Positions 1 through 25,900 of a stretch of 64,000 nucleotides of DNA are shown here, piece by piece. How positions within the stretch are numbered: position 1 is the first letter of the stretch; each line of letters starts with the position of its first letter. The notes under the pieces were generated by a model. That model did not search any database and was not told the origin of the DNA. It saw nothing but the letters and a program-made list of their open reading frames with translations. Location: the NCBI GenBank assembly GCA_964543075.1, contig CAZIVT010000001.1:7703-71702 (forward strand). Direction: 5' to 3'. Source of the stretch: an uncultured Candidatus Saccharibacteria bacterium. GTDB lineage: Bacteria; Patescibacteriota; Minisyncoccia; Phycocordibacterales; PALSA-1337. The position numbers and the translations under genes were made by a program.

Positions 1-98
1 ATCCCACGTGTTGCCGGGTACCGCCCAATCGTTGTGGAGCCACAGACCGTCGTCGCTGCGGTCCAGGTTGAAGACGAACGGGCGGCCGTCGGAGTCGG
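1..98 (-). repeat. DGR variable repeat (VR), in-window part only. It continues beyond position 1.
   Basis: The reverse complement of 1..98 aligns base-for-base with TR 2073..2170. There are 11 differences, all at TR adenines. By my hand count 11 of 28 TR adenines are changed and 0 of about 70 non-adenine positions. TR AAC/AAA/AAT/GAC codons become CGC, TTC, GAC, AGC, CAC, GTA, GGC and GAT in the VR. Confidence 0.85.
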
Positions 99-1791
99 AA
101 ATAGGCTTCATGCCGATGTGGAAATACTCTCCCAGAGGCTGATTGCGGTATTTGAGACGGTAATTGGGACCAGTGTCCGGTGGGCAGAGTTCAAGGCCAA
201 GCTCTTCCGCTCGCTCGAATATTTGGGTGGTAGTCGCGCTTGTCTTGAGACCCAGATCACCAACAGTGAGGCGGATGAGTGTCATCTCCTCGGGGTTCTT
301 TGTTGGAATGAATTCAGCTTTATTCAAGAGCATGCTTCGAGCATAGCTGGAAAGATTGATACTCGCAGCTTCGATTTCGGAGATGAGCTGTTCTGCCGAT
401 TTGCCTCCAACCTCCACATTTTCTCTCCTGATTTTCTTTTCGGGGAACGAAGTATATACGTGTTCCAAAGTCGCCGGAAGTTTTTGGAAAACACCGGGTT
501 CAAGCTGCCCGACATATGCTTTGGTATTTTCGGTTATCTCGCTCGGAACATGGGCTATCTGTTCTTTCGCGCACTCGAAAATCGTAAGCATGTCCTCTTC
601 CGTGTTGCGGCCTGCACGAAGCTCTTCAATACGGGGATCTTTTTCGTACCCGAAACCCTCGATCGTGGAGTTTATTTCATAGAGGAATGTGAGGTCTTCT
701 TTGGTGAAAGGCTCGTCTTTTTCATGCTTGCTTTCGAGAGCGGTGAGGAGGCGCATATCCTCGCTTTTCTTGCGATAAGCATCGGCTTCCACGCCGAATT
801 CGCCGAGCTTCTCGTCCAAGACTTCCTGCATGAGCGGTTCTACGCCCTGATGCGGCAGAATGCCGCGCACTTCGCCGATTCGATCTTTGCCTTCCATGCG
901 TATAGCAAGGCGTGGTTGAGTCGGCTCACCACTTGAATCGTTCGTATAGTAGACATAAAAGTCGCCGGACTCGATCTGAGTTTCGGCCGTTGATTTTCCG
1001 GCAGTGCACCAGCCGGTTCCTTTGCCTTCGAGAGACTCAAATAGTTTTTGTGAAGCTTCGTTGTCTCCTTGTTCATATTTTACCCACTGTCCCTGAATCT
1101 CCTCGCGGTTCTCCATCGAGGCTGCCAGAGATTTTGAAATGAGTTCTGCATAGAGCGTCGGGAATTTCTTGTCGAATTCTCTACGAGCCTCGGAATCCTT
1201 GTTATCGTCCTTAACTCTTTCATAGAGATCGGCGATCTGGGCCAAGGGCTCACGGTAGATATCCGGAAAAGGTGCTACCGTGGAATCGGTGCGCTTCTTA
1301 AACTCGCCGCGTTCCTTGTCGAACTGGGAAAGTTTGATGATTTGATTCCAGGCATAGTACTTGAACCATGTCGGATATACCGCATCCGGCGAAGTGAGAT
1401 ATTCCATCCATGCGTCGAGAGAGTGTCGCTGATCTTCGATTGCCGTCTCCATCATCTGCTCGCGCACATCGGCCGGAATTTCTTCTATATGCTGACCACG
1501 CTCACGGGCGATGCGCTTCTGAAGCTCGAAGTACGAATCGGGAAAATTCTCCTTCTTGATGATGAGCTTGTCGTATATCTTGTCGCGGAACATTTCGAGA
1601 TTTCGCTCCCGCTTGTCTTCGTCGGGATTGAGGAAGATGTTTTCCAGTCGATCCATGTAAGCCTCGATGCGCTCGGTGGGATTATTCGGGATTTTTTCTC
1701 CTTCGAGACGCTCTTTCTTCTCTACGGCAGACTGCACTTCAGGGGAAGTCTGGAGCTCGGGATTTTTCATGTGAAGCGGAAACTTTTCCAT
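1..1791 (-). CDS. DGR target protein (variable protein). Partial: the 3' end with the rest of the VR lies beyond the window start. About 597 aa are visible. No signal peptide, highly charged.
   Basis: The minus-strand ATG at 1791 opens a frame that runs to position 1 without a stop. I verified by hand the segments MEKFPLHMKNPELQTSPEVQSAVEKKERLEGEKIPNN (1791..1681), KDSEARREFDKKFPTLYAEL (1200..1141), FYVYYTNDSSGEPTQPRLAI (960..901) and the C-terminal GEYFHIGMKPISDSDGRPFVFNLDRSDDGLWLHNDWAVPGNTWD (rc of 1..135). The C-terminal codons are the VR cognate of the TR at 2073..2170. The plus-strand ORFs 34..936 and 1342..2022 are its antisense shadows. Confidence 0.8.
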   Translation of the reverse strand, partial: MEKFPLHMKNPELQTSPEVQSAVEKKERLEGEKIPNNPTERIEAYMDRLENIFLNPDEDKRERNLEMFRDKIYDKLIIKKENFPDSYFELQKRIARERGQHIEEIPADVREQMMETAIEDQRHSLDAWMEYLTSPDAVYPTWFKYYAWNQIIKLSQFDKERGEFKKRTDSTVAPFPDIYREPLAQIADLYERVKDDNKDSEARREFDKKFPTLYAELISKSLAASMENREEIQGQWVKYEQGDNEASQKLFESLEGKGTGWCTAGKSTAETQIESGDFYVYYTNDSSGEPTQPRLAIRMEGKDRIGEVRGILPHQGVEPLMQEVLDEKLGEFGVEADAYRKKSEDMRLLTALESKHEKDEPFTKEDLTFLYEINSTIEGFGYEKDPRIEELRAGRNTEEDMLTIFECAKEQIAHVPSEITENTKAYVGQLEPGVFQKLPATLEHVYTSFPEKKIRRENVEVGGKSAEQLISEIEAASINLSSYARSMLLNKAEFIPTKNPEEMTLIRLTVGDLGLKTSATTTQIFERAEELGLELCPPDTGPNYRLKYRNQPLGEYFHIGMKPISDSDGRPFVFNLDRSDDGLWLHNDWAVPGNTWD

Positions 1792-2072: not shown

Positions 2073-2200
2073 CCGACTCCGACGGCAACCCGAACGTCTT
2101 CAACCTGAACCGCAACGACGACGGTCTGTGGCTCAACAACGATTGGGCGAAACCCGACAACACGTGGAATCCGGACAACAAGTTCGTATTCCGTCTCCGA
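2073..2200 (+). repeat. DGR template repeat (TR). The 3' boundary is uncertain: at least 2170, probably about 2200.
   Basis: Sequence ccgactccgacggcAACccgAACgtcttcAACctgAACcgcAACgacgacggtctgtggctcAACAACgattgggcgAAAcccgacAACacgtggAAtccggacAACAAgttc. It is AAC-rich in the same codon frame as the VR, and identical to the VR except at adenines. It lies upstream of the RT on the same strand. It is followed at 2225..2247 by a perfect 14-bp palindrome agtaacatgttact plus a ttactag direct repeat. Confidence 0.85.
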
Positions 2201-2243
2201 AACTGTTTTCTTTTTCCGCGATCCAGTAACATGTTACTAGTTA

Positions 2244-2648
2244 CTAGCGGTCGCGGTTTTTCTTGTCCGGATTTTCAAGGCCTTTCTTCCATCCGTAAAA
2301 CATCTTACCTGACTCCTCAAGCTTCCGCGCCACATCTTCACACTGTTTGTTGGTGACAAGCTTGCCCTCCCAAGCTACGGCGACCAGAAACTTGAGCGTG
2401 TCGAGGACAAAAATGCATTCGGCGATCTTTTCCGCTTTCTTTTCTTTTTCGGTAAAATACGCCACATAGGACAGCTCGAGCAAATCGAGAAATTTATTTT
2501 CTATCCGAGCTCCGATGGTATATCGAGCGCCTTTGGAAATATGCGGAACAATATTAACCCACAACAAATATCCCTCTTTGACTCGCTGGAGAATCGAGGC
2601 GTTATCGAGAGAGAGAGAGAGAGAGAGAGTAGAATGCGGCCGCGTCAT
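2244..2648 (-). CDS. avd: Avd-like accessory protein (four-helix-bundle / 23S rRNA IVS family), divergent to the RT. Start codon uncertain: ATG 2657 or 2648, or a downstream non-ATG.
   Basis: The translation ...ILQRVKEGYLLWVNIVPHISKGARYTIGARIENKFLDLLELSYVAYFTEKEKKAEKIAECIFVLDTLKFLVAVAWEGKLVTNKQCEDVARKLEESGKMFYGWKKGL fits the IVS / four-helix-bundle pattern (W..helix, xPK.E.Y.L..Q.RR, then ...GKML.GL) that the Bordetella phage Avd belongs to. It is about 130 aa and basic, and sits between the TR and the RT. The stop TAG is at 2244..2246. Confidence 0.6.
   Translation of the reverse strand: MTRPHSTLSLSLSLDNASILQRVKEGYLLWVNIVPHISKGARYTIGARIENKFLDLLELSYVAYFTEKEKKAEKIAECIFVLDTLKFLVAVAWEGKLVTNKQCEDVARKLEESGKMFYGWKKGLENPDKKNRDR
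2609..2632. repeat. (GA)11-12 dinucleotide microsatellite in the divergent avd/RT 5' overlap.
   Basis: gagagagagagagagagagagag at 2609..2631. It encodes ERERERE in the RT frame and SLSLSLSL in the avd frame. Confidence 0.9.
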
Positions 2649-3623
2649 ATCTACCATAATATCATCTCCGTTGATAACTTGCTCTCGGCGTGGCGCGAGT
2701 TTCTGAAAAATAAGCGCGGCCGCAAAGATGTTAAGGAATTTTCGCTACGTCTCATGGACAACATCCTTGCTCTTAATAGCGATCTTGTAGATAAAACATA
2801 CCGGCATGGCGGTTATACTGCGTTTCGGATCAACGACCCGAAGCCGCGCGACATTCACAAGGCGACAGTGCGCGATCGGCTCCTGCATCACGCTATGTAT
2901 CGAATCCTGTATCCATATTTTGATCCGAAATTCATTTTTGATTCATATTCCTGTCGTCGCGTCAAAGGCACGCATCGGGCACTGAACCGTTTTCGCGACC
3001 ATGCACGCTCGGTCTCCCGTAACAACACACGCACGATTTGGATTTTGAAATGCGACATACGAAAATTTTTCGCCAATATAGATCATGAAATTCTGGGCAA
3101 GATTTTGAAAAAATATATTAGAAGTGGCAATACGATCTTACTTCTAAGCAAGGTCGTCAGGAGTTTCCATATTGAGGGCAGGCCAGGCGTCGGTCTGCCG
3201 CTTGGCAATCTCACGAGCCAGCTTTTGGTGAACGTATACATGAACGAATTTGATCACTTTCTCAAGCGCGAATTGAAGGTCGAACATTGCGTCAGATATG
3301 CAGACGATTTTGTCATATTGCACGAGAATAGGAAGCATCTGGAAAATTTGCTTCCTCTGATTTCCGAATTTCTTGAGACCCGATTGAAACTGTCTCTACA
3401 TCCCGATAAGGTATTCATAAAGACGTGGTCGTCCGGCGTTGATTTTCTCGGATGGGTACATTTTCCACATCATCGTGTGCCGCGCACTTCGACCAAAAGA
3501 CGAATGTTTAGAAATCTCGAAGCAAATTCAAAAGAAGAATCTCTTTCATCATATCGTGGACTTTTGAAGCATGGCGATACATACAAATTGAGGAAGATGT
3601 TGGATAGATATAATCGACATTAA
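2634..3623 (+). CDS. DGR reverse transcriptase. The probable start is ATG 2634; the ORF is open from 2541.
   Basis: N-terminus ...ISVDNLLSAWREFLKNKRGRKDVKEFSLRLMDNILALNSDLVDKTYRHGGYTAFRINDPKPRDIHKATVRDRLLHHAMYRILYPYFDPKFIFDSYSCRRVKGTHRAL... Motif 4 is GVGLPLGNLTSQLLVNVYM, carrying the DGR-type [ILV]GxxxSQ in place of the group II intron QGxxxSP. Motif 5 is VRYADDFVIL. It is colinear with Bordetella phage bRT (GVGIPIGSLTSQLFANVY ... RYMDDIVVL). Confidence 0.9.
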   Translation: MRPRHIYHNIISVDNLLSAWREFLKNKRGRKDVKEFSLRLMDNILALNSDLVDKTYRHGGYTAFRINDPKPRDIHKATVRDRLLHHAMYRILYPYFDPKFIFDSYSCRRVKGTHRALNRFRDHARSVSRNNTRTIWILKCDIRKFFANIDHEILGKILKKYIRSGNTILLLSKVVRSFHIEGRPGVGLPLGNLTSQLLVNVYMNEFDHFLKRELKVEHCVRYADDFVILHENRKHLENLLPLISEFLETRLKLSLHPDKVFIKTWSSGVDFLGWVHFPHHRVPRTSTKRRMFRNLEANSKEESLSSYRGLLKHGDTYKLRKMLDRYNRH

Positions 3624-3665: not shown

Positions 3666-3995
3666 GTGATAAAGGATGATGATATTGAAGCGATCATAGA
3701 TGCGAGCAAGCATTTCAAATACCACGAGCCGACAGGTTCTACTCCCTTTAACCGTATCTCCAAATTGCCCGAATCCAAGAAGGATTTGAAGATGGCAATC
3801 AAGGAGCGCATCCGACTGCTCGTTGCCTCATACATCTCGCTCGCTTCCTTTATTGATGACGACCTCGTCGATTTTCTCGAGAGTGATGAAGTGCAGGTGC
3901 GTAAAGGTAAGGTGATACGGATATATAACAGAGTATTCAAAGATTTTGAGAAACTAAGAAAGGAAATTCAAAATTTTAACCCATTCGAGCCATGA
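3666..3995 (+). CDS. Hypothetical protein (109 aa) between the DGR RT and the recombinase.
   Basis: An intact ORF on the same strand as the RT and integrase, with an acidic N-terminus and a basic C-terminus. No recognisable family. Confidence 0.4.
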   Translation: MIKDDDIEAIIDASKHFKYHEPTGSTPFNRISKLPESKKDLKMAIKERIRLLVASYISLASFIDDDLVDFLESDEVQVRKGKVIRIYNRVFKDFEKLRKEIQNFNPFEP

Positions 3996-4129: not shown

Positions 4130-5452
4130 ATGCAACAAATACAAGCGCCTGGAGGAGTGACGGCCAAACCAGCAAGCCCCGTAAAGGTAAAATACTGCCT
4201 GTATGCCAGAAAAAGCACCGAATCCGAGGAACGCCAAGTCCTTTCAATCGACAGCCAGATAAGCGAGATGTTGAAACTGGCTGAAAGAGAAGGTCTTGAG
4301 ATAGTATCCATGAAACGAGAGAGTCATTCTGCCAAAGAGACAGGACAACGACCTATTTTTAACGAGATCGTCGATGAGATAAAGGCAAAAAAGTTCAATG
4401 GAATACTGACATGGGCACCGGATCGTATTAGTCGTAATGCAGGCGATCTCGGCAAAGTCATCGATCTCATGGATGCCAATATCCTTCAGGACATTCGCAC
4501 GTACGGTCAAAGATTCACGAATAGTCCGAATGACAAGTTTATGCTTATGATCCTCTGCTCACAAGCAAAACTGGAGAACGACAACCGAGGTATCAACGTA
4601 AAGCGAGGACTTCGAACACGAGTCGAGATGGGACTCTGGCCTGGAATGGCACCCTTGGGATATCTCAATCAGAAGCTCATGGACAAGAAATGCCAACTGG
4701 CGATCGATCCAGCGAGAGCGCCAGTCATAAAGAAAATATTCGAGAAGGTGGCATACGAGCAGTGGAGTGGAAGGAAGGTATACAACTGGCTTAGGTTCGA
4801 GCTCAACTTCCATACGAGGGGTAATAGACCGCTTACGTTAAGTGGCGTATACAAAATCCTGGACAACCCCATATATTACGGCCCCTTCGAATTCCCAAAG
4901 AAAAGCGGCAACTGGTATCAAGGCAAGCATACACCCATAGTGGATCAGGAATTGTTCGAGAAAGCACAAGCTCACCTGAAGCGTGACCAAATTGTAAGAG
5001 AAACCAAGGAATTCTCCTTCACCAAGCTCTTCACCTGCGGATATTGTGGATCGGGTATATCCGCCGAGGAGAAGTGGAAACAGCTCAAGGCAGGCGGATC
5101 AAACAGATACATATACTACTCCTGCTCCAGAGCAAAGGATAGAAATTGTAAGAACAAATACATACGTGAAGAAGATCTGATTACGGAGCTTCTCAAAATA
5201 TTGGACAAGGTAAATCTGAATGAGCTCGGTATGCGGCAGAGATTGGAGGATGAAATTGCGAGATTCAATATCTTCCAGAGATCAGTCCTTGGCACCAAAG
5301 ACAAAGTTGAGGCAAGAAGCGATACTGATATCAGAAACTATGCGAAGTATATTCTCAAGGAAGGAACAGCGAATGAGAAGCGGGAGTTACTGGCGAATCT
5401 CAGAAGCAGGATCATATATAAGGACAAGACACTCACACTCGTAGAAGAATGA
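4130..5452 (+). CDS. Large serine recombinase (integrase).
   Basis: The N-terminal resolvase-type catalytic domain (VKYCLYARKSTESEERQVLSIDSQ...) is followed by a recombinase domain and a Cys-rich zinc-ribbon region (FTCGYCGSGISAEE...YYSCSRAKDRNCKNKYIRE). At 440 aa it matches phage and ICE large serine integrases. It sits next to the tRNA-Ser 3' end. Confidence 0.85.
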   Translation: MQQIQAPGGVTAKPASPVKVKYCLYARKSTESEERQVLSIDSQISEMLKLAEREGLEIVSMKRESHSAKETGQRPIFNEIVDEIKAKKFNGILTWAPDRISRNAGDLGKVIDLMDANILQDIRTYGQRFTNSPNDKFMLMILCSQAKLENDNRGINVKRGLRTRVEMGLWPGMAPLGYLNQKLMDKKCQLAIDPARAPVIKKIFEKVAYEQWSGRKVYNWLRFELNFHTRGNRPLTLSGVYKILDNPIYYGPFEFPKKSGNWYQGKHTPIVDQELFEKAQAHLKRDQIVRETKEFSFTKLFTCGYCGSGISAEEKWKQLKAGGSNRYIYYSCSRAKDRNCKNKYIREEDLITELLKILDKVNLNELGMRQRLEDEIARFNIFQRSVLGTKDKVEARSDTDIRNYAKYILKEGTANEKRELLANLRSRIIYKDKTLTLVEE

Positions 5453-5492: not shown

Positions 5493-5563
5493 AGCGTAAT
5501 GAGGCTTGAAGGTCGCACTTCACTCCAAATCAATAAGGACACACCGATACTAAATTGTCAAGG

Positions 5564-5650
5564 CGGAGAGGAAGGGATTCGAACCCTTGATGCCCTTTCG
5601 GACATACGGCCTTTCCAGGGCCGCCCATTCGACCGCTCTGGCACCTCTCC
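5564..5650 (-). tRNA. tRNA-Ser (anticodon GGA).
   Basis: The reverse complement GGAGAGGTGCCAGAGCGGTCGAATGGGCGGCCCTGGAAAGGCCGTATGTCCGAAAGGGCATCAAGGGTTCGAATCCCTTCCTCTCCG folds as follows. Acceptor GGAGAGG/CCTCTCC. A 3-bp D-stem. Anticodon stem CGGCC/GGCCG with loop CTGGAAA (anticodon GGA). A long class II variable arm. T-arm AAGGG-TTCGAAT-CCCTT. Discriminator G. CCA is not encoded. Confidence 0.9.
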
Positions 5651-10854: not shown

Positions 10855-12606
10855 GTGACCGAACCATCGACATATACACCTCGTCCCGGCCGTAAAGCAA
10901 CCATACTCGGCTATATCGGGAGATTCTCAGCTACAGAACGAGCTCTATTCAGCTTGCTCGTGATCGCCGCGCTCATTTCCGCGCTCATCATGGGAAAATG
11001 GGTCAATGACTATTTCTCAGTAGATGTACCCGCCTACGGAGGATCGCTGACTGAGGGCATCATCGGCCTACCCCGTACGGTCAACCCTATCCTCGCCGTG
11101 ACCGACGCTGATCGCGACATATCAGCGCTCGTATATTCCGGCCTAGCGAAGTACGAGCATGGAGCGCTCGTCACCGACCTAGCCCAATCATATGACATAT
11201 CCGAAGATGGCCTCGTATATACGTTCACGTTGAAACCAAAGCTACAGTTCCACGACGGCGAACCACTAACTACGGAGGACATCGCCTTTACCATCCAGAA
11301 GATCCAGGACCCTGTCCTCAAGAGTCCCCGTCGCGCCGACTGGGCAGACGTGACGGTCGAGGTCGTATCTCCCACAGAAGTGAAGTTCATCTTGAAACAG
11401 CCCTATCGGCCTTTCCTATCCAATACGACGATCGGCATCCTGCCGAAGCATGTCTGGGGTTCAGTCAGCGATGAACAGTTCATCTTCAGCCAGTACAACA
11501 TAGAGCCGATCGGATCAGGCCCATATCGTTTCGACAAGGTCTCATACAACGCAGGTGGCATCCCCACGACATACAAACTCTCATCGTGGAGCGGATACCA
11601 TGGACGCGTACCGTATATAAGCCAGGTCATATTCAAATTCTTCGCGGACGAAGAAACGGCGCTCGATGCTCTGGACCAGGGATCGATCGACAGCTTGCCG
11701 TCAGTGCCTCCTGCCGCCGCCACGAACCTCGCGCGTACGACCGCACAATCATACACCGTCATCTCTTCGCCCTTGCCGCGAGTATTCGGGGTATTCTTCA
11801 ATCAGAGCCAGTCTCCCATACTGGCCGATCGAGCCGTGAGAGTCGCGCTCGATGCGGCGCTCGACCGTCAAGCGATCGTCGATGCCGTCCTCGACGGATA
11901 CGGCCTACCTCTCGATAGAGCTGTGCCTTTTCTAGCCATAGCGAGCTCGACAGATTCCACTGGTCCATCGATCGACCCTGCGACGACTTCGCCGTTCATC
12001 GCGAACGCAGAAGCGATCCTAGACAGGAATGGCTGGAAGAAGAATGACGGCGTCTATGAGAAGAAGACATCGTCAGGAGTCTCCACCATCTCATTCGATA
12101 TATATACAGCCGATTCTCCTGACCTCAAGCGCGCAGTAGAGATGATACGCGACACATGGAACGAGCTCGGCGCGCAGGTCAACATCAAGGTCTACGAAAC
12201 GGGAGATCTCTACCAGAACATCATCCGGACACGAGAATACGACGCTCTCTTCTTCGGCCAATCGATCGGCAAAGACCGTGACTTCTATGCCTTCTGGCAC
12301 TCATCACAGCGCAACGCTCCTGGCCTCAATGTGGCCCTCTATACCAATACCAAGACCGACAAATTGCTCGAGGACATCCGCATGATCGGCGACGAGGATC
12401 TGCGTGCCGAGAAATACGCCGAGTTCGACGAACTCCTCACGTATGATGTCCCCGCCACGTTCGTATATCTGCCGGATTTCATCTACGCGATCCCTCGAAC
12501 GCTCGGCGGTATCCAGCTCGATACCATGACCTCGCCGGCAGATCGCTGGAACGGAGTCCGTGACTGGTATATAGAAACTGAACGCGTATGGAAGATATTC
12601 GACTAG
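10855..12606 (+). CDS. ABC transporter substrate-binding protein, family 5 (oligopeptide/dipeptide-type).
   Basis: A TM/signal anchor is followed by SBP_bac_5-like sequence (...DADRDISALVYSGLAKYEHGALVTDLAQSYDISEDGLVYTFTLKPKLQFHDGEPLTTEDIAFTIQKIQDP...). Confidence 0.8.
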   Translation: MTEPSTYTPRPGRKATILGYIGRFSATERALFSLLVIAALISALIMGKWVNDYFSVDVPAYGGSLTEGIIGLPRTVNPILAVTDADRDISALVYSGLAKYEHGALVTDLAQSYDISEDGLVYTFTLKPKLQFHDGEPLTTEDIAFTIQKIQDPVLKSPRRADWADVTVEVVSPTEVKFILKQPYRPFLSNTTIGILPKHVWGSVSDEQFIFSQYNIEPIGSGPYRFDKVSYNAGGIPTTYKLSSWSGYHGRVPYISQVIFKFFADEETALDALDQGSIDSLPSVPPAAATNLARTTAQSYTVISSPLPRVFGVFFNQSQSPILADRAVRVALDAALDRQAIVDAVLDGYGLPLDRAVPFLAIASSTDSTGPSIDPATTSPFIANAEAILDRNGWKKNDGVYEKKTSSGVSTISFDIYTADSPDLKRAVEMIRDTWNELGAQVNIKVYETGDLYQNIIRTREYDALFFGQSIGKDRDFYAFWHSSQRNAPGLNVALYTNTKTDKLLEDIRMIGDEDLRAEKYAEFDELLTYDVPATFVYLPDFIYAIPRTLGGIQLDTMTSPADRWNGVRDWYIETERVWKIFD

Positions 12607-12664: not shown

Positions 12665-14686
12665 ATGAATAACCAACCATCAAACAACCCTTCTCGTCCG
12701 CCCGAACGCAAACCCCGCTTCCAGTACAGGCCGCGTGGATCGCGCCCCTCGCAGACCCGTGTCATCAGATCCGGATCCCCTTCGGGCGCGCCTCACCATG
12801 AGCGCACCCATCACAATGCCGGGACTGGAGGGCATCGTATCATCATGGGCAAGGGAGCCCATAAGCAGCCCGTCAAGCATCACGTCGCCGGAGCGCGCAT
12901 GACTATCATCCGTCCTGACGCCGCCAAGCCGATGCGCCGTATGCCAGCCAAGCCCTCTATGAAGCGCGAGGGGGATATCATCCCGCCATTGGCGCCAGAG
13001 ACGATCCGCATCGTGCCTCTCGGAGGAGTCGAGGAGATCGGCAAGAACATGACCGCCATCCAGTACGGTGATGACATCGTCGTCGTCGATATCGGATTCC
13101 AGTTCAAGGACGACGATACCCCCGGCATCGATTTCATACTTCCCAACACCAAATACCTCGAGGAGCGTCGCGACAAGATCCGAGCCGTCATCATCACGCA
13201 CGGTCACCTCGACCATATCGGCGGCATACCGTATATCATGCCCCGCATCGGCAACCCGCCTCTCTATACGCGCCTCCTGACCTCTGTACTCATCCAGAAG
13301 CGCCAAGAGGAGTTCCCTCATGTCCCCAAGCTCGACCTCAAGGTAGTCGAGAAGAACGAGACCATCACTGTCGGCAAGTTGCGCATCAAATTCTTTGCCG
13401 TCACCCACACCATACCTGACGCTATGGGCGTCATCATCGAGACCCCGTACGGATCCATCGTACACACAGGAGACCTCAAGCTCGACCATGACGACGGCGT
13501 ACCCACCGAGACCGAAGTCGCGGAATACGACCGCGCATTTCCGTCAGTAGACGGACAAGCACACAAGGTCCTGATGCTCATGGCCGACTCGACCAACGTC
13601 GAGAATCCGGGATTCTCCCTGCCTGAGCGCACCGTCCACAAGAATCTCGAAGAGATCATCAAGAACACGAACGGACGCCTGATCATCGCCACCTTCGCGT
13701 CACTCCTGGAACGCTTGCTCAAGATCGTCGAGTTCTCAGAGAAATACGGCAAGAAGGTCGTCGTGGAAGGCAGGTCGCTCAAGCAGAATATCGAGATCTG
13801 CAAGGCGCTCGGCTTGGTCAAGGCCAAGAAAGAGACCTTCATATCCGTCGACGAGATCGACAACCTCCCGCCGGAGCGTATCGTCATCCTCTCGACAGGA
13901 GCGCAAGCCAACGACTTCTCCGCTCTCGTGCGCATGTCGCAGAAGACTCATGCCAAGATCAAGCTCACACCTCGTGACACCATCGTCCTCTCGTCATCCG
14001 TCGTCCCGGGCAACGAACGCGCCGTGCAGAGGCTCAAGGACAACCTGTCACGTCAGGGAGCGCGCATCCTCCACTACCGTATCGCCGACGTGCACTCGTC
14101 AGGACACGCCAACCGAGACGAGACGGCGTGGATACATCGCGCCATACGACCCAAATTCTTCATGCCGCTCCACGGATATCACTACATGTTGCGCACGCAC
14201 TGCGATATCGCCAAGGATGCCAACGGCCTCTCCGAATCCGACGTCGTCATCCCGGACAACGGCTCCGTCATAGAGATCAGGGAGCGCGGCACCAAGCTCG
14301 TCAAGCTCAAGGAGAAGGCCGCTTCTGGCCTCGTCCTCGTCGACGGATTCTCGGTCGGAGACGTCCAGGATGTCGTCATCCGCGATCGTCAGGCGCTCGC
14401 ACAAGACGGCATCTTCATCATCTTCGGCATACTCAACGGGCAGACCGGCAAGCTCAAGAAGTCCCCTGATATCATCTCGCGCGGGTTCGTCTATCTCCGC
14501 GAATCGCAGGAACTGCTCCATGAAGTGCGCCTGCTCATCAAGGATACCGTCGAGCGTTCGACCCGCGGCATGAAGCCGATCAGCGTCGACCTAGTCAAAG
14601 ACAACGTCACTGACGCGGTATCCAAATTCCTCATGCAAAAGACAGCCAAAAGGCCGATGGTGATACCGGTTCTACTTACGATATAG
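12665..14686 (+). CDS. rnj: Ribonuclease J (beta-CASP metallo-beta-lactamase) with a basic low-complexity N-terminal extension of about 110 aa.
   Basis: IRIVPLGGVEEIGKNMTAIQYGDDIVVVDIGFQF...AVIITHGHLDHIGGIPYIMP...HTGDLKLDHDD... The real start may be an internal Met. Confidence 0.9.
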   Translation: MNNQPSNNPSRPPERKPRFQYRPRGSRPSQTRVIRSGSPSGAPHHERTHHNAGTGGHRIIMGKGAHKQPVKHHVAGARMTIIRPDAAKPMRRMPAKPSMKREGDIIPPLAPETIRIVPLGGVEEIGKNMTAIQYGDDIVVVDIGFQFKDDDTPGIDFILPNTKYLEERRDKIRAVIITHGHLDHIGGIPYIMPRIGNPPLYTRLLTSVLIQKRQEEFPHVPKLDLKVVEKNETITVGKLRIKFFAVTHTIPDAMGVIIETPYGSIVHTGDLKLDHDDGVPTETEVAEYDRAFPSVDGQAHKVLMLMADSTNVENPGFSLPERTVHKNLEEIIKNTNGRLIIATFASLLERLLKIVEFSEKYGKKVVVEGRSLKQNIEICKALGLVKAKKETFISVDEIDNLPPERIVILSTGAQANDFSALVRMSQKTHAKIKLTPRDTIVLSSSVVPGNERAVQRLKDNLSRQGARILHYRIADVHSSGHANRDETAWIHRAIRPKFFMPLHGYHYMLRTHCDIAKDANGLSESDVVIPDNGSVIEIRERGTKLVKLKEKAASGLVLVDGFSVGDVQDVVIRDRQALAQDGIFIIFGILNGQTGKLKKSPDIISRGFVYLRESQELLHEVRLLIKDTVERSTRGMKPISVDLVKDNVTDAVSKFLMQKTAKRPMVIPVLLTI

Positions 14687-17025: not shown

Positions 17026-17817
17026 CTACGGCTCGTATTCTCCGCTGGTTGAATAGCTCTGAGAACCGTAGTGAGTAGTAATTGTGTAGAGCCAGTGGAG
17101 TTCCACAACAGGACCATAGTCGACTGAATGATATCCCCCTGATCCTGCTACACAAGATGATACACAAGTCTGGGATATGCTCGGCTGATAATCACCCCCT
17201 TCTTCACCCCAATCTATCGTATATCCTGTCATACCTGTCGTATCAGAAGGAAATACCCACGTAAATTCGATCGTCGCAGATGGCTGACCGATCCCGATGC
17301 CTTGTTCCGGAATAAGTGCGACATTGGTCACTGGGCCGGGACTACCCCCTCCAGCACCTGCCAATGAGGAGGTGGGATTATTTCCATAGCAGTACTTACT
17401 AGTCGGAGCATATGCGCTGTAATCAGCTGCGAGGCAACCGATATTCTTGGAGAAAGCGCTCGTTTCCGTTTGGAGAAGGATCTCGTATTGGCTACCATTG
17501 CTCAAATATGAAGACGCCGCTCCTCCAGAGACAGCGAAACCAGCAGACAATGAACTCAGATACGGGCTGAGTGGTCCGGAGACAAGAGTCTCGACTGTAG
17601 TCCCGCCCGTGGGATAGGCTTTGTGGTCGGAGTAATAGAGCTCAAGCGCGTTCCTGACCTGAGCAACGGTCTGAATGCGAGAGGCATCTCTGCCGCTCGC
17701 CCGAGCCGAATTGAGGCTCACCAACACCACGCTCGACAACATCCCAATGATGGAGATGACCACCAAGAGCTCGATGAGGGTGAAGCCTGCATTGTTTTTT
17801 CTAGATGAGATATTCAT
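17026..17817 (-). CDS. Type IV pilin-like protein (prepilin N-terminal methylation motif).
   Basis: NAGFTLIELLVVISIIGMLSSVVL is a class III signal peptide. Confidence 0.85.
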   Translation of the reverse strand: MNISSRKNNAGFTLIELLVVISIIGMLSSVVLVSLNSARASGRDASRIQTVAQVRNALELYYSDHKAYPTGGTTVETLVSGPLSPYLSSLSAGFAVSGGAASSYLSNGSQYEILLQTETSAFSKNIGCLAADYSAYAPTSKYCYGNNPTSSLAGAGGGSPGPVTNVALIPEQGIGIGQPSATIEFTWVFPSDTTGMTGYTIDWGEEGGDYQPSISQTCVSSCVAGSGGYHSVDYGPVVELHWLYTITTHYGSQSYSTSGEYEP

Positions 17818-22901: not shown

Positions 22902-25900
22902 CTAGTACTCGTAAGCACCGAGGTCCGGGCTGCCTGTGCGCAGTTTGCCGGTGATGTCGTACTGCGGGCCATCGAGGTCAGTGGTGCTGATGGTACTACC
23001 GCCGCTGGTGGCCGACTTGAGGGCGAAGGCGTCGTCGCTGGTGAAGGGCTTGCCATCGGCTCCGTACATGGCTTCGATGGTCGAGGGGCTGCCATTGTTG
23101 ACGTTCGAGGTACTGCTCAAGCCATTCTTGGTGGTCGGACTACCTGCCGGCGATACAACTGATATACCTGTGGTTTTGACAAAAGTGTTGTTGTAGACCT
23201 TGAACTCCTGCGACCAACCGCTGTTCTTTGTACCGAAGGCTATAGGCCTGGCTGTATTGTACGCTACGTTGTTGTAGAAGCGAACATACTTGAGTGCTGC
23301 AGCACTACCACCATATGCATCCTGGAGCAAGAATCCATCACCTTGAACCGACAGACCAGAGCTATTGAACATTATGCTGTTGGATACCGTGAGCCCATAA
23401 CCTCCTTTACCTGTCCATGAATTGACGATATCGCGATGAGGAGGATTCGATTCGCCAGATTTTACATTGTCACGGAAGACGTTGTGGTCAAGTATAATGT
23501 CGCCGCCGGTTTGCTTTGGATCTATCGCAAACTGATCTTCATATGTAGACCTGTAGAAATCAGAATACTCGACTCTGATAGTCCCTCCTGAAGGGGGATT
23601 GAACCCGAGGTGAGCATATCCTCCACCAAAGGTTCCATTGAAGAATGCGTTGCGCAGAGTGACATTTGATCCACTTAGCATGACTGCGACTGATCCAGCG
23701 CTCGTAGAGATGGCTCCACCAGTCCTAAAGGTAATACCCTGCCATCCTTTACCGTCGATAACTATGTTATTACCCGTAACCTTCGATGCGGCGCCAAAAG
23801 ATACCCGATCCGATGAAGCAACAGGCTCATTGGGAGCGAGTTCGAGCGAGCGGCGGATGACGATCGGAGCATTGGCGCTACCGGAGCTGGTGACATTGAG
23901 GGCATTGTAGCTTCCCGGCTGGAGCATGTAGGTCGCACCGGAGACCAGGGTGCTCGGAAGGTCGGCGTAGGCGTTGGCCCAGCTGCTGCCGTTCTTGGAT
24001 CCCGCGCCAGTCGGTGTGACATAGTAGACATTGCTTCCCGTCTGGATCTCAGAGAACAAAGCGGACACGGACACGTTACCATTCATAGTGACCGTACAAG
24101 ACGCGGCACCCGAGCATGCGCCTCCCCAACCAGAGAAGGTGTAGCCTGAGGCAGGAGATGCGGTGAGAGTGACGGAGGTGCCGGCGGCGTAGGTCGAAAG
24201 ATTCGGAGACCTAGTGACTGTACCGGAACCGGACGTGGTGACAGAGAGCGTGTAGGTGATGCTTGGATCAACATAGTCTCTCAGGTAGTCCTCGGCGGCC
24301 CAGCCATCTGCGCCGGATGCGAAGTTGACGTTCCACCAGTAGTATCCGTCGGCGAAGGTGCCGTTCTGCGTGCTCGAGACGATAGAACCGATCGCGCCGT
24401 CATTCTGGGTTCCCACCGTCGATGCGGATGCTGACGGGGCACTGCGGATGTTGAGGAAGGTTCCGGTACCGGAGACCTGGACCTGTGCGCCTGTCTGGAA
24501 CTTGGTCGAAGCTGAGGCAGTGTATGCCTCGAGACCATCCTCGCCTACCCAGCCGTCCGCGCCGGACGAGAAGTCGATATTCCACCAGGTGTAGGTGACG
24601 CCATCGACGCTCAAGACTGCAGAGACCGGACCGGCGATGACCGTACCGACAGAAGTGTCAGATTGCGTACCGAGGAGCGTGCCACCAGCTACCTGACGAA
24701 CGTTGACCGTGGAGTAGATCGGTCTCACAGTCTGTCCGATCGTGAAGGCACCTGTGACGACTACGGGCGTGAAGGCGGCTGATACGGACGTGTTGCTGTT
24801 GATAGTGAGAGTACACGTCGATGAGCTACCCGAGCATGCGCCTCCCCAACCAGAGAAGGTGTAGCCTGAGGCAGGAGATGCGGTGAGAGTGACGGAGGTG
24901 CCGGCGGCGTAGGTCGAAAGATTCGGAGACCTAGTGACTGTACCGGAACCGGACGTGGTGACGGTGAGGCTATATGACGAGACCGGAGCGGCATTGAAGA
25001 CTGCGTTGATCGTGGTGTTCGCATTTAGCGTGAAGGAACAGGTGGCGGCAGTCGAACAACCAGAGACACCTGACCAGCCGGCGAAGACGGATCCTGCAGC
25101 CGGAGTCGCGGTCAGAGTGACGGTCATGCCAGGATCACCTGATGACGTGCAGGAGTTGCCGCAGTTGATCGATCCACCCGAGGTGACCGTGCCAGCACCA
25201 GTGCCGTTCTTGGTCACTGTGACGGTGTAGGACGGGTTGGATTGCGTGGTAGCCGAGACCGCAGACGAGAGGTTGGAGACATTGCCGGCGGCATCGAAAG
25301 CAGCGACGGAATACGAGTAGGTAGTATTGGCGGAAAGCCCGGTGTTGACGTATGACCTGCCGTTGACAGTGGTCAAGAAAGCGCCATTCCTATAGACCTG
25401 ATACCCTGTCACGCCGACGTTGTCGGAAGAGGCGTTCCAAGAGAGGTTGATCTGTGAAGACGAGATGACGCTGGCAGTGAGACCTGACGGAATGGACGGA
25501 TCAGTCCCGTCGATCACCGGAGGCGTGTATTTGACGAATTTGATAGAAGAGATCGATGTGCCATTCTCACGAGCATTGACGTAGAGCGTGTGGACTCCCG
25601 CGGAGAGCGTCCATGTCTTGGGGACGATACCGGCGCAAGAATATTCATAACATGTCGTATTATTTCCTCTCCAGGTGACGTCCTTGGCTGTATTGCTGAC
25701 CGGATACTGGATATCCCAGACCTTGCCGTCGGTCGACGGATTGGAATCGATATCGACGTAGAACGAGTTGCGACCACCATCAGGGGCGGAGACTGTTCCC
25801 ACGAGCTTGTAGGTATCACCGGAGACGAGGTTGAAGGAGAACGGCGTGCCTACGGAGACATTGACCGAGGTCCCATCGGTGACCTGGGGCAGTGTGGTAG

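Follow-up and report, generated by a model that had tools for sequence, protein, structure and literature searches.

A DGR target of Patescibacteria with a modelled C-type-lectin-like C-terminus, a conserved N-terminal module and no detected export signal

Introduction

Can a protein that is diversified by a DGR work inside the bacterial cell, and what is joined to its variable domain when it carries no signal for export? The window (the whole stretch of 64,000 nucleotides analysed here) raises this question with its first gene. Mtd of a Bordetella phage, which forms the tip of the phage tail fibre, and TvpA of Treponema, a lipoprotein, are both extracellular DGR targets, and their CLec domains are of a larger, FGE-sulfatase-like type. 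DGR surveys since 2017 have reportedly found CPR targets without export signals or known domains and are said to have left their intracellularity open. Among the DGR targets characterised so far, most bind ligands outside the cell (PMC8144416). The targets of CPR clade-2 DGRs typically have neither TM segments nor recognised domains; that they are truly non-membrane proteins "remains to be established" (Roux et al. 2021, PMC8144416).

A preliminary description of this DNA had proposed a cytoplasmic DGR target with a large uncharacterised N-terminal domain. Two findings had been named beforehand as speaking against that proposal, an export signal at the re-evaluated start and a C-terminus that does not adopt a CLec fold, and both were looked for. 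Neither was found, which supports the cytoplasmic reading. The same description placed intracellular targets mainly in CPR/DPANN; the host here is indeed a member of the Patescibacteria (CPR), but cytoplasmic DGR targets are now known beyond CPR/DPANN and the class is no longer confined there (Dore et al. 2024, PMC10907252).

Results

The first gene of the window is the target of a complete DGR

The features of the locus are collected in Table 1. The target ORF lies on the minus strand and leaves the window at the window's start, the edge falling within the VR. The 14 codons outside the window, among them the final VR codons and β5, could be followed in two relatives, P0002 (611 aa, full length, 94% identical to the target) and P0001 (604 aa counted from a later Met, 100% identical), with the C-terminal end ...NTWDPGSKFVFRLRKSES. 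The N-terminus reads MEKFPLHM, and homologues keep MEK(H/F)PLH(L/M)KNPELQ. Moreover, an in-frame stop 27 codons upstream of the start rules out a hidden N-terminal extension. The plus-strand ORFs 34-936 and 1342-2022 were rejected as antisense shadows of the target, without support of their own.

Table 1. Features of the DGR locus, in window coordinates
Feature	Position	Strand	Extent and basis
DGR target gene	1..1791	-	codons 1-597 of 611; translation, full-length relatives P0001/P0002, upstream in-frame stop
Variable region (VR), visible part	1..98	-	residues ~565-597; 98-nt inverted match to TR
C-type-lectin-like domain	1..294	-	residues ~500-611, visible to 597; AF2 topology, Foldseek PDB
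Conserved N-terminal module	592..1791	-	residues 1-~400; recurrence with different C-termini
Cys-core α/β subdomain	787..1110	-	residues ~228-335 (EGKGTGWCTAG...GDFYVYY...PRLAIRM...IGEVRG)
Template repeat (TR)	2073..2203	+	pairing with VR; 38 adenines
Accessory variability determinant (bAvd)	2244..2657	-	conserved body 2244-~2606; Pfam PF22296
(GA)11 microsatellite	2607..2628		5 nt upstream of RT ATG, within 5' end of avd ORF
DGR reverse transcriptase (RT), 329 aa	2634..3623	+	RVT_1 E 1.7e-23; phrog_1423 E 2e-105
Small ORF, 109 aa	3666..3995	+	no family match; no tblastn match in related loci
Large serine recombinase	4130..5452	+	Resolvase, Recombinase and Zn_ribbon_recom domains; phrog_95 integrase E 1e-64
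tRNA-Ser(GGA)	5562..5650	-	related cassettes abut tRNA genes

The VR matches positions 2073-2170 (+) of the TR with 89% identity, and all 11 mismatches fall at TR adenines. Such a TR/VR pattern occurs at two places only within the window, with none expected by chance, and no second DGR target was found in the window. The TR, which translates as DSDGNPNVFNLNRNDDGLWLNNDWAKPDNTWNPDNKFVFRLRN, holds 22 variable codons, 11 of them AAY, corresponding to about 10^20.8 possible protein variants. The bAvd reaches 44.4 bits against PF22296 (E 2.6e-11, cut-off 40) and 54 bits against NCBIfam DivGenRetAVD (E 1.3e-14), the latter under that model's cut-off of 80. The RT motifs read PLGNLTSQ (LGxxxSQ) and YADD (YxDD). 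Homologues of the RT align from residues 1-5 of the 2634 start, and the mechanically called ORF from 2541 is probably too long. Together, the TR, the inverted bAvd and the RT form a complete DGR of which the target is the variable protein, as had been proposed, and the VR begins at about residue 565, in agreement with the approximately 560 upstream residues described earlier. From these sequences, adenine-specific mutagenesis by the DGR is predicted to rewrite the 3' end of the target gene at about 22 codons.

The relatives of the target show the same pattern. In nine related loci there are 12-24 TR/VR mismatches each, nearly all A-directed. Entropy across the family is 0.51 bits over residues 1-560 and rises above 2.5 bits only at positions encoded by TR AAY codons (residues 570, 572, 575, 579, 586-588, 591, 594, 597 and 600). 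At about half of the genome loci, a full-length homologue stands amid housekeeping genes with neither RT nor avd within 10 kb, which suggests that the protein may also function, or at least persist, without ongoing diversification.

The C-terminus is modelled as a compact C-type-lectin-like domain

The target consists of three parts: the N-terminal module, a small α/β linker subdomain and the C-type-lectin-like domain. In the AF2 model (full length: pLDDT 89.6, pTM 0.74; C-terminal 210 residues: pLDDT 96.8, pTM 0.91), the last 110-130 residues or so take the C-type-lectin topology β1-α1-α2-β2-β3-β4-β5, with β1 at 501-509, α1 at 521-530, α2 at 540-547, β2 at 556-559, β3 at 571-579, β4 at 582-589 and β5 at 601-606. 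When the C-terminal model was compared with the PDB by Foldseek, the top 18 matches were all C-type lectin-like domains, and CTLDs made up nearly all of the PDB matches. The best was mincle (E 0.01, probability 0.95, TM ~0.45), and no PDB match reached E<=0.001. The solved DGR variable proteins Mtd and TvpA were absent among the PDB matches listed, and neither the target nor 53 relatives gave a Pfam match to FGE-sulfatase, DUF1566 or other CLec families. The modelled topology is that of a C-type-lectin fold, about which the preliminary description had asked, and by this topology the domain is probably a compact CTLD, the structural-match scores being modest.

The hypervariable positions coincide with the AAY codons of the TR, and their residues occupy the β3-β4 hairpin and the loop leading to β5. 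On β3 they alternate (570/572, 575/577/579), and this i/i+2 spacing implies that their side chains point to one face of the strand. The alternation on β3, together with the end of β4 and the β4-β5 loop, is consistent with variable residues displayed on one exposed surface of the modelled domain.

The N-terminal module defines a very large family

The N-terminal module comprises a helical region, an α/β core with a near-invariant Cys in its "GTGWC" loop, and a first FLYEI..GFGY..DPR motif. Within the core, conservation in 151 sequences is 98% for C262, 100% for P293, 99% for R294, 94% for E307, 97% for R309 and 100% for G310. The target returned no match in Pfam, NCBIfam, PADLOC, PDB sequences or a PDB profile search, and a single non-significant match in PHROGs (E 0.011). 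Neither an NTPase domain (NACHT, AAA or STAND) nor a known effector or conflict domain was detected with Pfam, NCBIfam and PADLOC. The earlier view that the protein belongs to no recognisable family therefore stands as far as these databases go, but the N-terminal domain is no orphan: the module family comprises 5,546 50%-identity clusters at E<=1e-3, mostly from Patescibacteria. It appears to be among the largest families of signal-less CPR DGR targets.

Among 50%-identity representatives, the module recurs with different C-termini, namely LRR-like repeats (P0152, P0403, P0258) and helical repeats (P0127), and P0121 and P0122 carry extra FLYEI repeats. In one related locus (L029) it is joined to a different, unrelated DGR-diversified tail, for which 24 of the 25 mismatches lie at TR adenines. 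The long family variants show no real Pfam domains; where LRR-type relatives had been labelled HNH_5 or MoeA_C, the labels were rejected as spurious matches to 15-25-aa repeats. Many homologues are solitary chromosomal genes amid housekeeping genes, with no mobile-element marker, in Patescibacteria as well as gut Firmicutes.

The module also shows similarity to phage proteins. Its best match in a Foldseek search of BFVD has an E value of 2.7e-8 over 430 columns, and a 1,494-aa phage protein is among the matches of that search. Furthermore, the Cys core is 49% identical over 72 aa (E 5e-18) to a giant phage ORF in locus L030. This ORF has an HExxH motif, a relative of it carries LPD38, and it resembles a polyvalent protein. 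Phage and plasmid LPD polyvalent proteins are giant multi-enzyme polyproteins, whereas the target is a single-purpose protein of 611 aa. A tblastn search of phage genomes with the N-terminal module gave no match, and scans of IMG/VR with close patterns gave no family relatives; a degenerate GTGWCTAG pattern gave two.

A PcfJ-like protein motif upstream of the VR has been listed for some CPR targets (Wu et al. 2018, PMC5758913), and Foldseek against BFVD found PcfJ-like phage proteins (E 6e-3, 0.13 and 1.0). We compared the family with pCF10 PcfJ by means of a 19-sequence alignment and hhalign, over the full length and over the core only. The N-terminal domain is not assigned to PcfJ (PF14284) here: none of 53 members matched PF14284 at E<=10, a model with which pCF10 PcfJ itself scores 1e-43, and the hhalign P values were 0.098 and 0.17. 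The non-significant hhalign alignments pair C262, P293 and G310 with C372, P401 and G417 of PcfJ, in which the pattern is HC..E..Q.Q as against WC..R..E.R in the target family. We found no functional literature on PcfJ.

The target carries no recognisable export signal

With the start re-evaluated, hydropathy analysis of the target revealed neither a signal peptide nor a TM segment, in line with the preliminary description, and no lipobox or Tat motif was seen. The best 19-residue Kyte-Doolittle window scores 0.51 (threshold ~1.6) and the best 9-mer within the first 40 residues -0.08, and those 40 residues include six basic and eight acidic ones. A lipobox is impossible because the first Cys stands only at position 262, and an RR motif is absent. 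The protein is acidic and hydrophilic (pI 4.9, GRAVY -0.80) and as highly charged as had been remarked (E 12.9%, K 7.5%, R 6.5%, D 6.4%).

Among 270 family proteins, only four have a TM-like segment: one is a probable mis-called start, one has a long N-terminal extension and two have C-terminal tail anchors. The tail-anchored variants (P0251 and P0258), which have no signal peptide, imply a module on the cytoplasmic side. Collectively, we infer that the target stays in the cytoplasm; the lack of Sec, Tat and TM signals may also be compatible with non-classical export and does not in itself prove a cytoplasmic location.

The cassette probably lies on a small tRNA-associated island

On the side of the putative island that falls within the window, the serine recombinase and tRNA-Ser(GGA) were observed; the far end lies beyond the window. 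The tRNA gene is the probable integration site. GC content is 0.46-0.50 in the island and 0.52-0.58 nearby. The 109-aa ORF is not conserved in related cassettes; the recombinase recurs beside them, often as gene fragments. In two related loci, the cassette lies between att-like direct repeats that have their start within the tRNA (102 nt in L006, 37 nt in L013). Between these repeats, the cassette, made up of target, TR, avd and RT and in some cases the recombinase, is essentially the sole cargo. In the closest relatives L033 and L035, the flanking regions share a match of only 12 nt, which we take as chance. Target identity reaches 75-88% between differently named candidate phyla. From these observations we infer that the cassette passes horizontally between Parcubacteria, travelling as a small island that inserts at tRNA genes.

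Discussion

The target gene clearly exemplifies a class of DGR targets that is known but still unsolved. With the CPR targets of RT clade 2 (PMC8144416) and of the "CPR set" with B3 architecture (Wu et al. 2018, PMC5758913) it shares the host group, a single target, an avd inverted relative to TR and RT and a C-terminal VR, and like them it shows no Pfam domain, TM segment or signal peptide. In those surveys, targets of this sort were not assigned to a class (UVR or ungrouped). The present analysis goes further in delimiting the family (more than 5,500 50%-identity clusters), in modelling its C-terminus as a CTLD, in tracing its module outside CPR and into giant phage proteins, and in placing its cassette on a probable tRNA-integrating island.

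Similar to Mtd and TvpA, the target has its VR at the extreme C-terminus and a TR rich in AAY codons, and its variable residues lie on modelled CLec-type strands and loops over an invariant hydrophobic scaffold (GLWL, W, FVFRLR). In contrast, its domain is probably a compact CTLD of about 110 residues that is closest to the CRDs of animal lectins, it has no export signal, and it gives no sequence match to FGE-sulfatase or DUF1566. The conflict-system antigen sensors of multicellular bacteria are likewise predicted to be cytoplasmic and join a C-terminal CLec to a conserved N-terminal module, the idea being that sensing falls to the CLec and transduction or action to the N-terminus (Dore et al. 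2024, PMC10907252). The domains found in these sensors are of the STAND NTPase or MoxR-associated kind, and the sensors are placed in RT clade 5 (PMC10907252). The target differs in coming from a CPR host and in showing no NTPase or conflict domain in Pfam, NCBIfam or PADLOC.

The reading that we favour, tentatively and with some reserve, is that the target would be a soluble cytoplasmic adaptor for intracellular conflict, a hypervariable lectin-like binder joined to a constant effector module and spread in a cassette that travels as a tRNA island. The DGR-diversified domain would bind a ligand that changes rapidly, and a fixed enzymatic or signalling job, upon or after binding, would fall to the constant N-terminal module. 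That job may belong to intracellular conflict with phages or mobile elements, because other proteins join the module to LRR-like repeats, helical repeats or an unrelated second DGR tail, and because a giant phage protein also contains the Cys core of the module; the whole protein would then be a hypervariable intracellular recognition device. For the N-terminal module, no match to PADLOC defence families, to an NTPase switch or to a known effector domain was found. A bolder form of this reading, which we regard as rather doubtful, would make the locus a 4-6 kb tRNA-integrating island with the DGR and its soluble protein as single cargo, spread through Parcubacteria, in which the protein is antibody-like, with a constant effector part directed against phages and mobile elements inside the cell, this part being the Cys-containing module in common with phage polyvalent proteins. 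In this scenario, diversification may be turned on and off by a hypervariable (GA)n/poly-G tract situated where avd and RT meet.

An extracellular role toward the host cell is reportedly the function first proposed for CPR DGR targets. In that case the target would leave the cell without a classical signal, by a type IV secretion-like route, in association with pili or by lysis, and act as a hypervariable adhesin or effector toward the basibiont. The extracellular ligands of most characterised targets (PMC8144416) speak for this, as do the host interaction proposed for CPR DGRs, as cited in PMC10907252, and the best structural matches, which are extracellular CTLDs together with a Bdellovibrio fibre-tip domain (8oks). 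In the family itself, P0152 has a long N-terminal extension carrying hydrophobic segments, the closest relatives, L033-L035, have a VirD4/TrwB-like ATPase two genes downstream of the target, and L027 is flanked by ATPases of this kind. However, a VirD4-like neighbour was seen in just two independent contexts among about 20 loci, and the link to a T4SS was rejected as an inconsistent association. Moreover, 266 of the 270 relatives are, like the target, devoid of a signal peptide, lipobox or TM segment, the target is acidic and highly charged without a cell-wall or membrane anchor, and the tail-anchored relatives imply a cytoplasmic module. On this evidence, export seems unlikely, although it deserves to be kept in view.

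A role in the service of the island itself, as an anti-defence or addiction factor of a PcfJ-like or polyvalent kind whose DGR tracks fast-evolving host defence proteins, appears improbable. It would fit a cassette that is essentially the sole cargo between att-like repeats, beside a serine recombinase and a tRNA, as well as the Cys core that also occurs in a giant phage ORF with LPD38-bearing relatives, the PcfJ-like phage proteins retrieved by Foldseek, and the AcrIIA9-family gene that adjoins pCF10 PcfJ. Nevertheless, homology to PcfJ finds no support in sequence, with no match to PF14284 and non-significant hhalign values, and the many solitary chromosomal homologues carry no mobile-element marker.

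That the DGR no longer diversifies, so that the TR-VR differences and the family variability are fossils of a specificity now fixed, appears improbable. In its favour, RT and avd have disappeared from about half of the related loci although the C-terminus there still looks variable, most related cassettes have no ATG, GTG or TTG in frame with the Avd body, and recombinase genes are often fragments. Against it, the window has an intact RT that includes the catalytic motifs, an ATG stands in frame with Avd, 11 AAY codons persist in the TR, all TR-VR mismatches lie at adenines with no drift elsewhere, and close relatives (94% identical overall) differ nearly only at VR positions.

With its confident model and its evident modularity, in which a constant module is joined to an interchangeable binder, the locus makes the question of intracellularity experimentally approachable. 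If the target is exported after all, the family would point to a signal-independent export route in CPR bacteria. If it instead acts in intracellular recognition, as we tentatively propose, episymbionts with minimal genomes would carry a portable hypervariable recognition system.

A soluble target without export signals

An adenine-directed diversity-generating retroelement (DGR) appears to rewrite one face of the lectin-like C-terminal domain of a soluble, signal-less protein whose N-terminal 400 residues are strongly conserved. As judged from two database proteins, P0001 (100% identical, called from Met8) and P0002 (94% identical, 611 aa), 14 codons of the target gene are missing from the window, and the full-length protein ends in ...NTWDPGSKFVFRLRKSES. 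The target ATG is preceded, 27 codons upstream, by an in-frame stop, and the MEK(H/F)PLH start is kept across target homologues; the start is therefore sound. The plus-strand ORFs 34–936 and 1342–2022 were rejected as antisense shadows of the target.

The preliminary description proposed a target without signal peptide or transmembrane (TM) segment, and this was borne out, as judged by hydropathy analysis only. The best 19-residue Kyte–Doolittle window of the full protein scores 0.51, no 9-mer among the first 40 residues scores above −0.08, and these 40 residues carry six basic and eight acidic charges. Re-evaluation of the start likewise yielded no signal peptide, nor a lipobox, because the first cysteine is residue 262. 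The protein is acidic (pI 4.9) with a GRAVY of −0.80. Only 4 of 270 family proteins have a TM-like segment: one probably has a mis-called start, one carries a long extension at its N-terminus, and two end in a tail anchor.

The target had also been described as fitting no recognised family. No match was found in Pfam, NCBIfam, PADLOC, or PDB sequences for the target or 53 diverse relatives, but the protein has a very large family of its own. More than 3,000 relatives were retrieved at E ≤ 1e-3, the best 120 of which are 75–100% identical to the target; almost all of the named ones belong to Patescibacteria (Paceibacterota, Minisyncoccia, Sungbacteria, Moraniibacteriota, Vogelbacteria, and Taylorbacteria). 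When 50%-identity representatives were searched exhaustively with HMMER, 5,546 clusters matched at E ≤ 1e-3, of which 1,276 did so at E ≤ 1e-30.

Coordinates of the features of the window, the target model, and related loci
Feature	Location	Strand	Remarks
Target ORF, start MEKFPLHMKNPELQ	1791 to 1	minus	truncated by window start; 597 codons inside
Template repeat (TR)	2073–2203		38 adenines; 22 variable codons, 11 AAY
bAvd gene	2244–2657	inverted vs TR/RT	adjoins TR; PF22296
(GA)n tract	2607–2628
Reverse transcriptase (RT)	2634–3623	as TR	RVT_1; PLGNLTSQ and YADD present
109-aa ORF	3666–3995	plus	between RT and recombinase
Large serine recombinase	4130–5452
tRNA-Ser(GGA)	5562–5650		adjoins recombinase
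b1	residues 501–509		AlphaFold2 model
a1	residues 521–530		AlphaFold2 model
a2	residues 540–547		AlphaFold2 model
b2	residues 556–559		AlphaFold2 model
b3	residues 571–579		AlphaFold2 model
b4	residues 582–589		AlphaFold2 model
b5	residues 601–606		AlphaFold2 model
(GA)n tract, L006	9187–9208		then a poly-G
(GA)n tract, L007	9184–9199
(GA)n tract, L014	12891–12910
(GA)n tract, L021	9937–9960
(GA)n tract, L024	9181–9200
(GA)n tract, L026	2901–2912
(GA)n tract, L033	7183–7202
(GA)n tract, L035	3659–3676
102-nt direct repeat, L006	8025–8126 / 11962–12063		starts in 3' part of tRNA-Gln gene; brackets 3.9 kb
37-nt repeat, L013	9522–9558 / 13882–13918		starts at tRNA-Ser 3' end; brackets 4.4 kb
L029 (IMG/VR contig)	81–1415, 1731–1840, 2176–3207		43%-identical module; different short C-terminal VR
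P0403, L031	10001–12658		gut Firmicutes; chromosomal housekeeping context

Diversification of the C-terminal domain

Window positions 1–98 are an inverted copy of 2073–2170 with 89% identity. All 11 differences between the two lie at adenines of the latter, which is therefore the TR, and the pattern has no other occurrence anywhere in the window. The TR is computed to allow approximately 10^20.8 proteins. The TR and RT occupy one strand and avd and the target the other, a layout that looks like the B3 arrangement, which accounts for 90% of CPR DGRs (Wu et al., PMC5758913).

AlphaFold2, supplied with a 53-sequence alignment, modeled the full protein with a pLDDT of 89.6 and a pTM of 0.74, and the last 210 residues alone with 96.8 and 0.91. 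In the model, the order of elements in the C-terminal ~110 residues is that of a C-type-lectin-like topology. Foldseek against the PDB returned nothing at E ≤ 0.001 for the C-terminal model; the top 18 matches and most of the top 31 are nevertheless C-type-lectin-like domains (CTLDs), and the full-length query behaved in the same way. The best match is mincle (E 0.01, probability 0.95, TM ~0.45), and others include BDCA2, MCL, DCAR2, DEC205, NKG2D, and langerin, as well as the C-terminal domain of Bdellovibrio Bd2740. No sequence match to the FGE-sulfatase or DUF1566 families was found for this domain. The predicted lectin fold raised in the preliminary description is accepted as far as topology goes, the quantitative support being modest (best E 0.01).

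The variability falls where a DGR is expected to place it. Over residues 1–560, 112 full-length relatives have a mean column entropy of 0.51 bits, whereas values above 2.5 bits are reached at residues 570, 572, 575, 579, 586, 587, 588, 591, 594, 597, and 600. Residue 530 is the sole position above this value outside the variable region (VR); all the others correspond to AAY, GAT, or AAA codons of the TR. The variable residues alternate along b3 (570/572, 575/577/579) and would therefore aim at one strand face, and the remainder occupy the b4 end and the b4–b5 loop. No variation is seen in the scaffold residues VF, L, R, GLWL, W, and FVFRLR, whose codons are adenine-free.

Most related cassettes carry a (GA)n/(CT)n tract of 6–12 units and/or a poly-G of 9–11, located 5–10 nt ahead of the RT start, within the 5' end of avd. 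At L001, L013, and L020, poly-G(9–11) replaces (GA)n, and three cassettes that are ~85% mutually identical have 11, 10, and 9 units. The conserved Avd body is in frame with an ATG only in the window and at L017, which has no tract; at L014 and L021 the one in-frame candidate start is a TTG near that body, and at the other loci no ATG, GTG, or TTG is in frame with it. The tract may be a phase-variable switch of DGR diversification, or merely a purine-rich ribosome-binding region for the RT. A literature search pairing DGR with phase-variation terms listed no paper with the DGR term in it.

A modular N-terminal domain

Residues 1–~400 form a module that recurs with differing C-termini. In P0121 and P0122, extra FLYEI..GFGY..DPR copies precede a CTLD-like, non-N-rich tail, and P0127 joins the module to helical repeats. 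Among the non-CPR members, ~20 LRR-like 21-residue repeats (LTSAxGLxLPxxVGGxIDL) follow the module in P0403 and P0152, the latter from a flagellated bacterium (L032); in P0251 and P0258, such repeats precede a tail anchor at the C-terminus. On LRR-type relatives, the Pfam labels HNH_5 and MoeA_C are spurious repeat matches. The VR of L029 has its own TR, with 24 of 25 mismatches at adenines, and is accompanied by Avd, RT, and a serine recombinase. Inserted in frame between conserved motifs of the L029 RT is a tandem (AGAC)24 array that translates into a run of DRQT repeats.

Among 151 sequences, Q121, W128, Y145, R167, Y214, W236, W261-C262, P293-R294, E307, R309, and G310 are near-invariant. 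In the model, C262 lies in a loop just before helix 266–275, and three strands then follow. Against viral models, the top Foldseek match is an uncultured phage protein of 1,494 aa (E 2.7e-8 over 430 columns), followed by PcfJ-like phage proteins (E 6e-3, 0.13, and 1.0). The 72-residue GTGWC Cys core around C262 recurs at 49% identity in a giant phage ORF (>1,838 aa, open at both ends, with an HExxH motif) on the minus strand of the 5.5-kb locus L030. This ORF itself has no Pfam or PHROG match, and its relative P0401 carries LPD38 ("large polyvalent protein associated domain"). On this evidence, the Cys core moves as a module among proteins resembling polyvalent proteins.

A "PcfJ-like protein" motif has been reported in some CPR targets (Wu et al., PMC5758913). 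PcfJ membership by sequence fails, with PF14284 matching 0 of 53 members and hhalign against a pCF10-PcfJ alignment giving P = 0.098 (full length) and 0.17 (core); these non-significant alignments pair C262, P293, and G310 with PcfJ C372, P401, and G417.

An apparent integrative island

The target, TR, avd, RT, 109-aa ORF, recombinase, and tRNA gene follow one another in the window, with a GC content of 0.46–0.50 in the cassette versus 0.52–0.58 beyond; the remainder is ordinary chromosome (GroEL, RNase J, L25, aldolase, GatB, and SecA). The 109-aa ORF matches no family and lacks an equivalent in related cassettes; at L035, a different 117-aa ORF occupies its position. Related cassettes adjoin tRNA genes (Gln, Ser, and Arg), often together with a recombinase or its fragments, and the L006 and L013 repeats enclose just RT, avd, TR, and target. 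A flanking direct repeat was not found in the two closest relatives, and the far end lies outside the window. The DGR-target cassette appears to be a 4–6 kb integrative island. Target, RT, and Avd are 75–88% identical across differently named candidate phyla, identities that would fit horizontal spread.

Of the 21 genome loci, approximately half have a full-length homologue whose C-terminus looks variable; it lies amid unrelated housekeeping genes, with no RT, avd, or TR within 10 kb. For these solitary homologues (L008, L009/L027, L010, L012/L028, L015, L018, L022, L023, and L025; 40–81% identical), either the DGR has been lost or diversification acts in trans from elsewhere in the genome.

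Several neighboring genes were also recorded. VirD4/TrwB-like ATPases (DUF8128 + DUF87) lie near the target in the nearest relatives, L033 (10285–13074) and L035 (6767–9556), and at the orphan locus L027 (1–1139 and 16534–18768); the link is inconsistent, as most other loci lack them. At 17026–17817 (minus), 11 kb from the island, the window encodes a type IV pilin-like protein with an N_methyl motif, and a pilin-like gene is also near the L033 cassette. Two giant minus-strand ORFs, 22902–27734 (1,610 aa; fn3, InlB B-repeat, and SH3_3) and 28122–39020 (3,632 aa; LVIVD repeats, with a Peptidase_S74 intramolecular-chaperone domain toward the C-terminal end), probably encode surface fibres or adhesins of the episymbiont.

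Discussion

We propose that the variable binder would bring a changing ligand to the constant N-terminal module, or regulate it, and that the protein would serve as an adaptor in intracellular conflict with mobile elements. Coupling of binder and module is suggested because the module is repeatedly fused to other protein-binding repeats and to a second, unrelated DGR-diversified tail, and because its core occurs in a phage protein resembling a polyvalent protein; taken together, the three observations suggest that such conflict is the setting in which the protein acts. Taken whole, the proposal is plausible yet tentative.

Signal-independent export, followed by attachment to or manipulation of the host cell, is unlikely; tail anchors without signal peptides would keep the conserved module in the cytoplasm. 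It is improbable that the protein serves a selfish island, for example in anti-defence. A fossil DGR is distinctly improbable.

The adaptor proposal concerns a class already recognized: CPR DGR targets without TM or conserved domains, whose membrane status "remains to be established" (Roux et al., PMC8144416). The window target belongs here, in agreement with the earlier remark that intracellular targets are known chiefly from CPR/DPANN lineages. The cytoplasmic CLec-fused sensors of Dore et al. (PMC10907252) are conceptually close, although the window target has no NTPase. To this class the analysis adds the bounds of a very large family, a CTLD model, a modular N-terminal domain connected to phages, and the island context.
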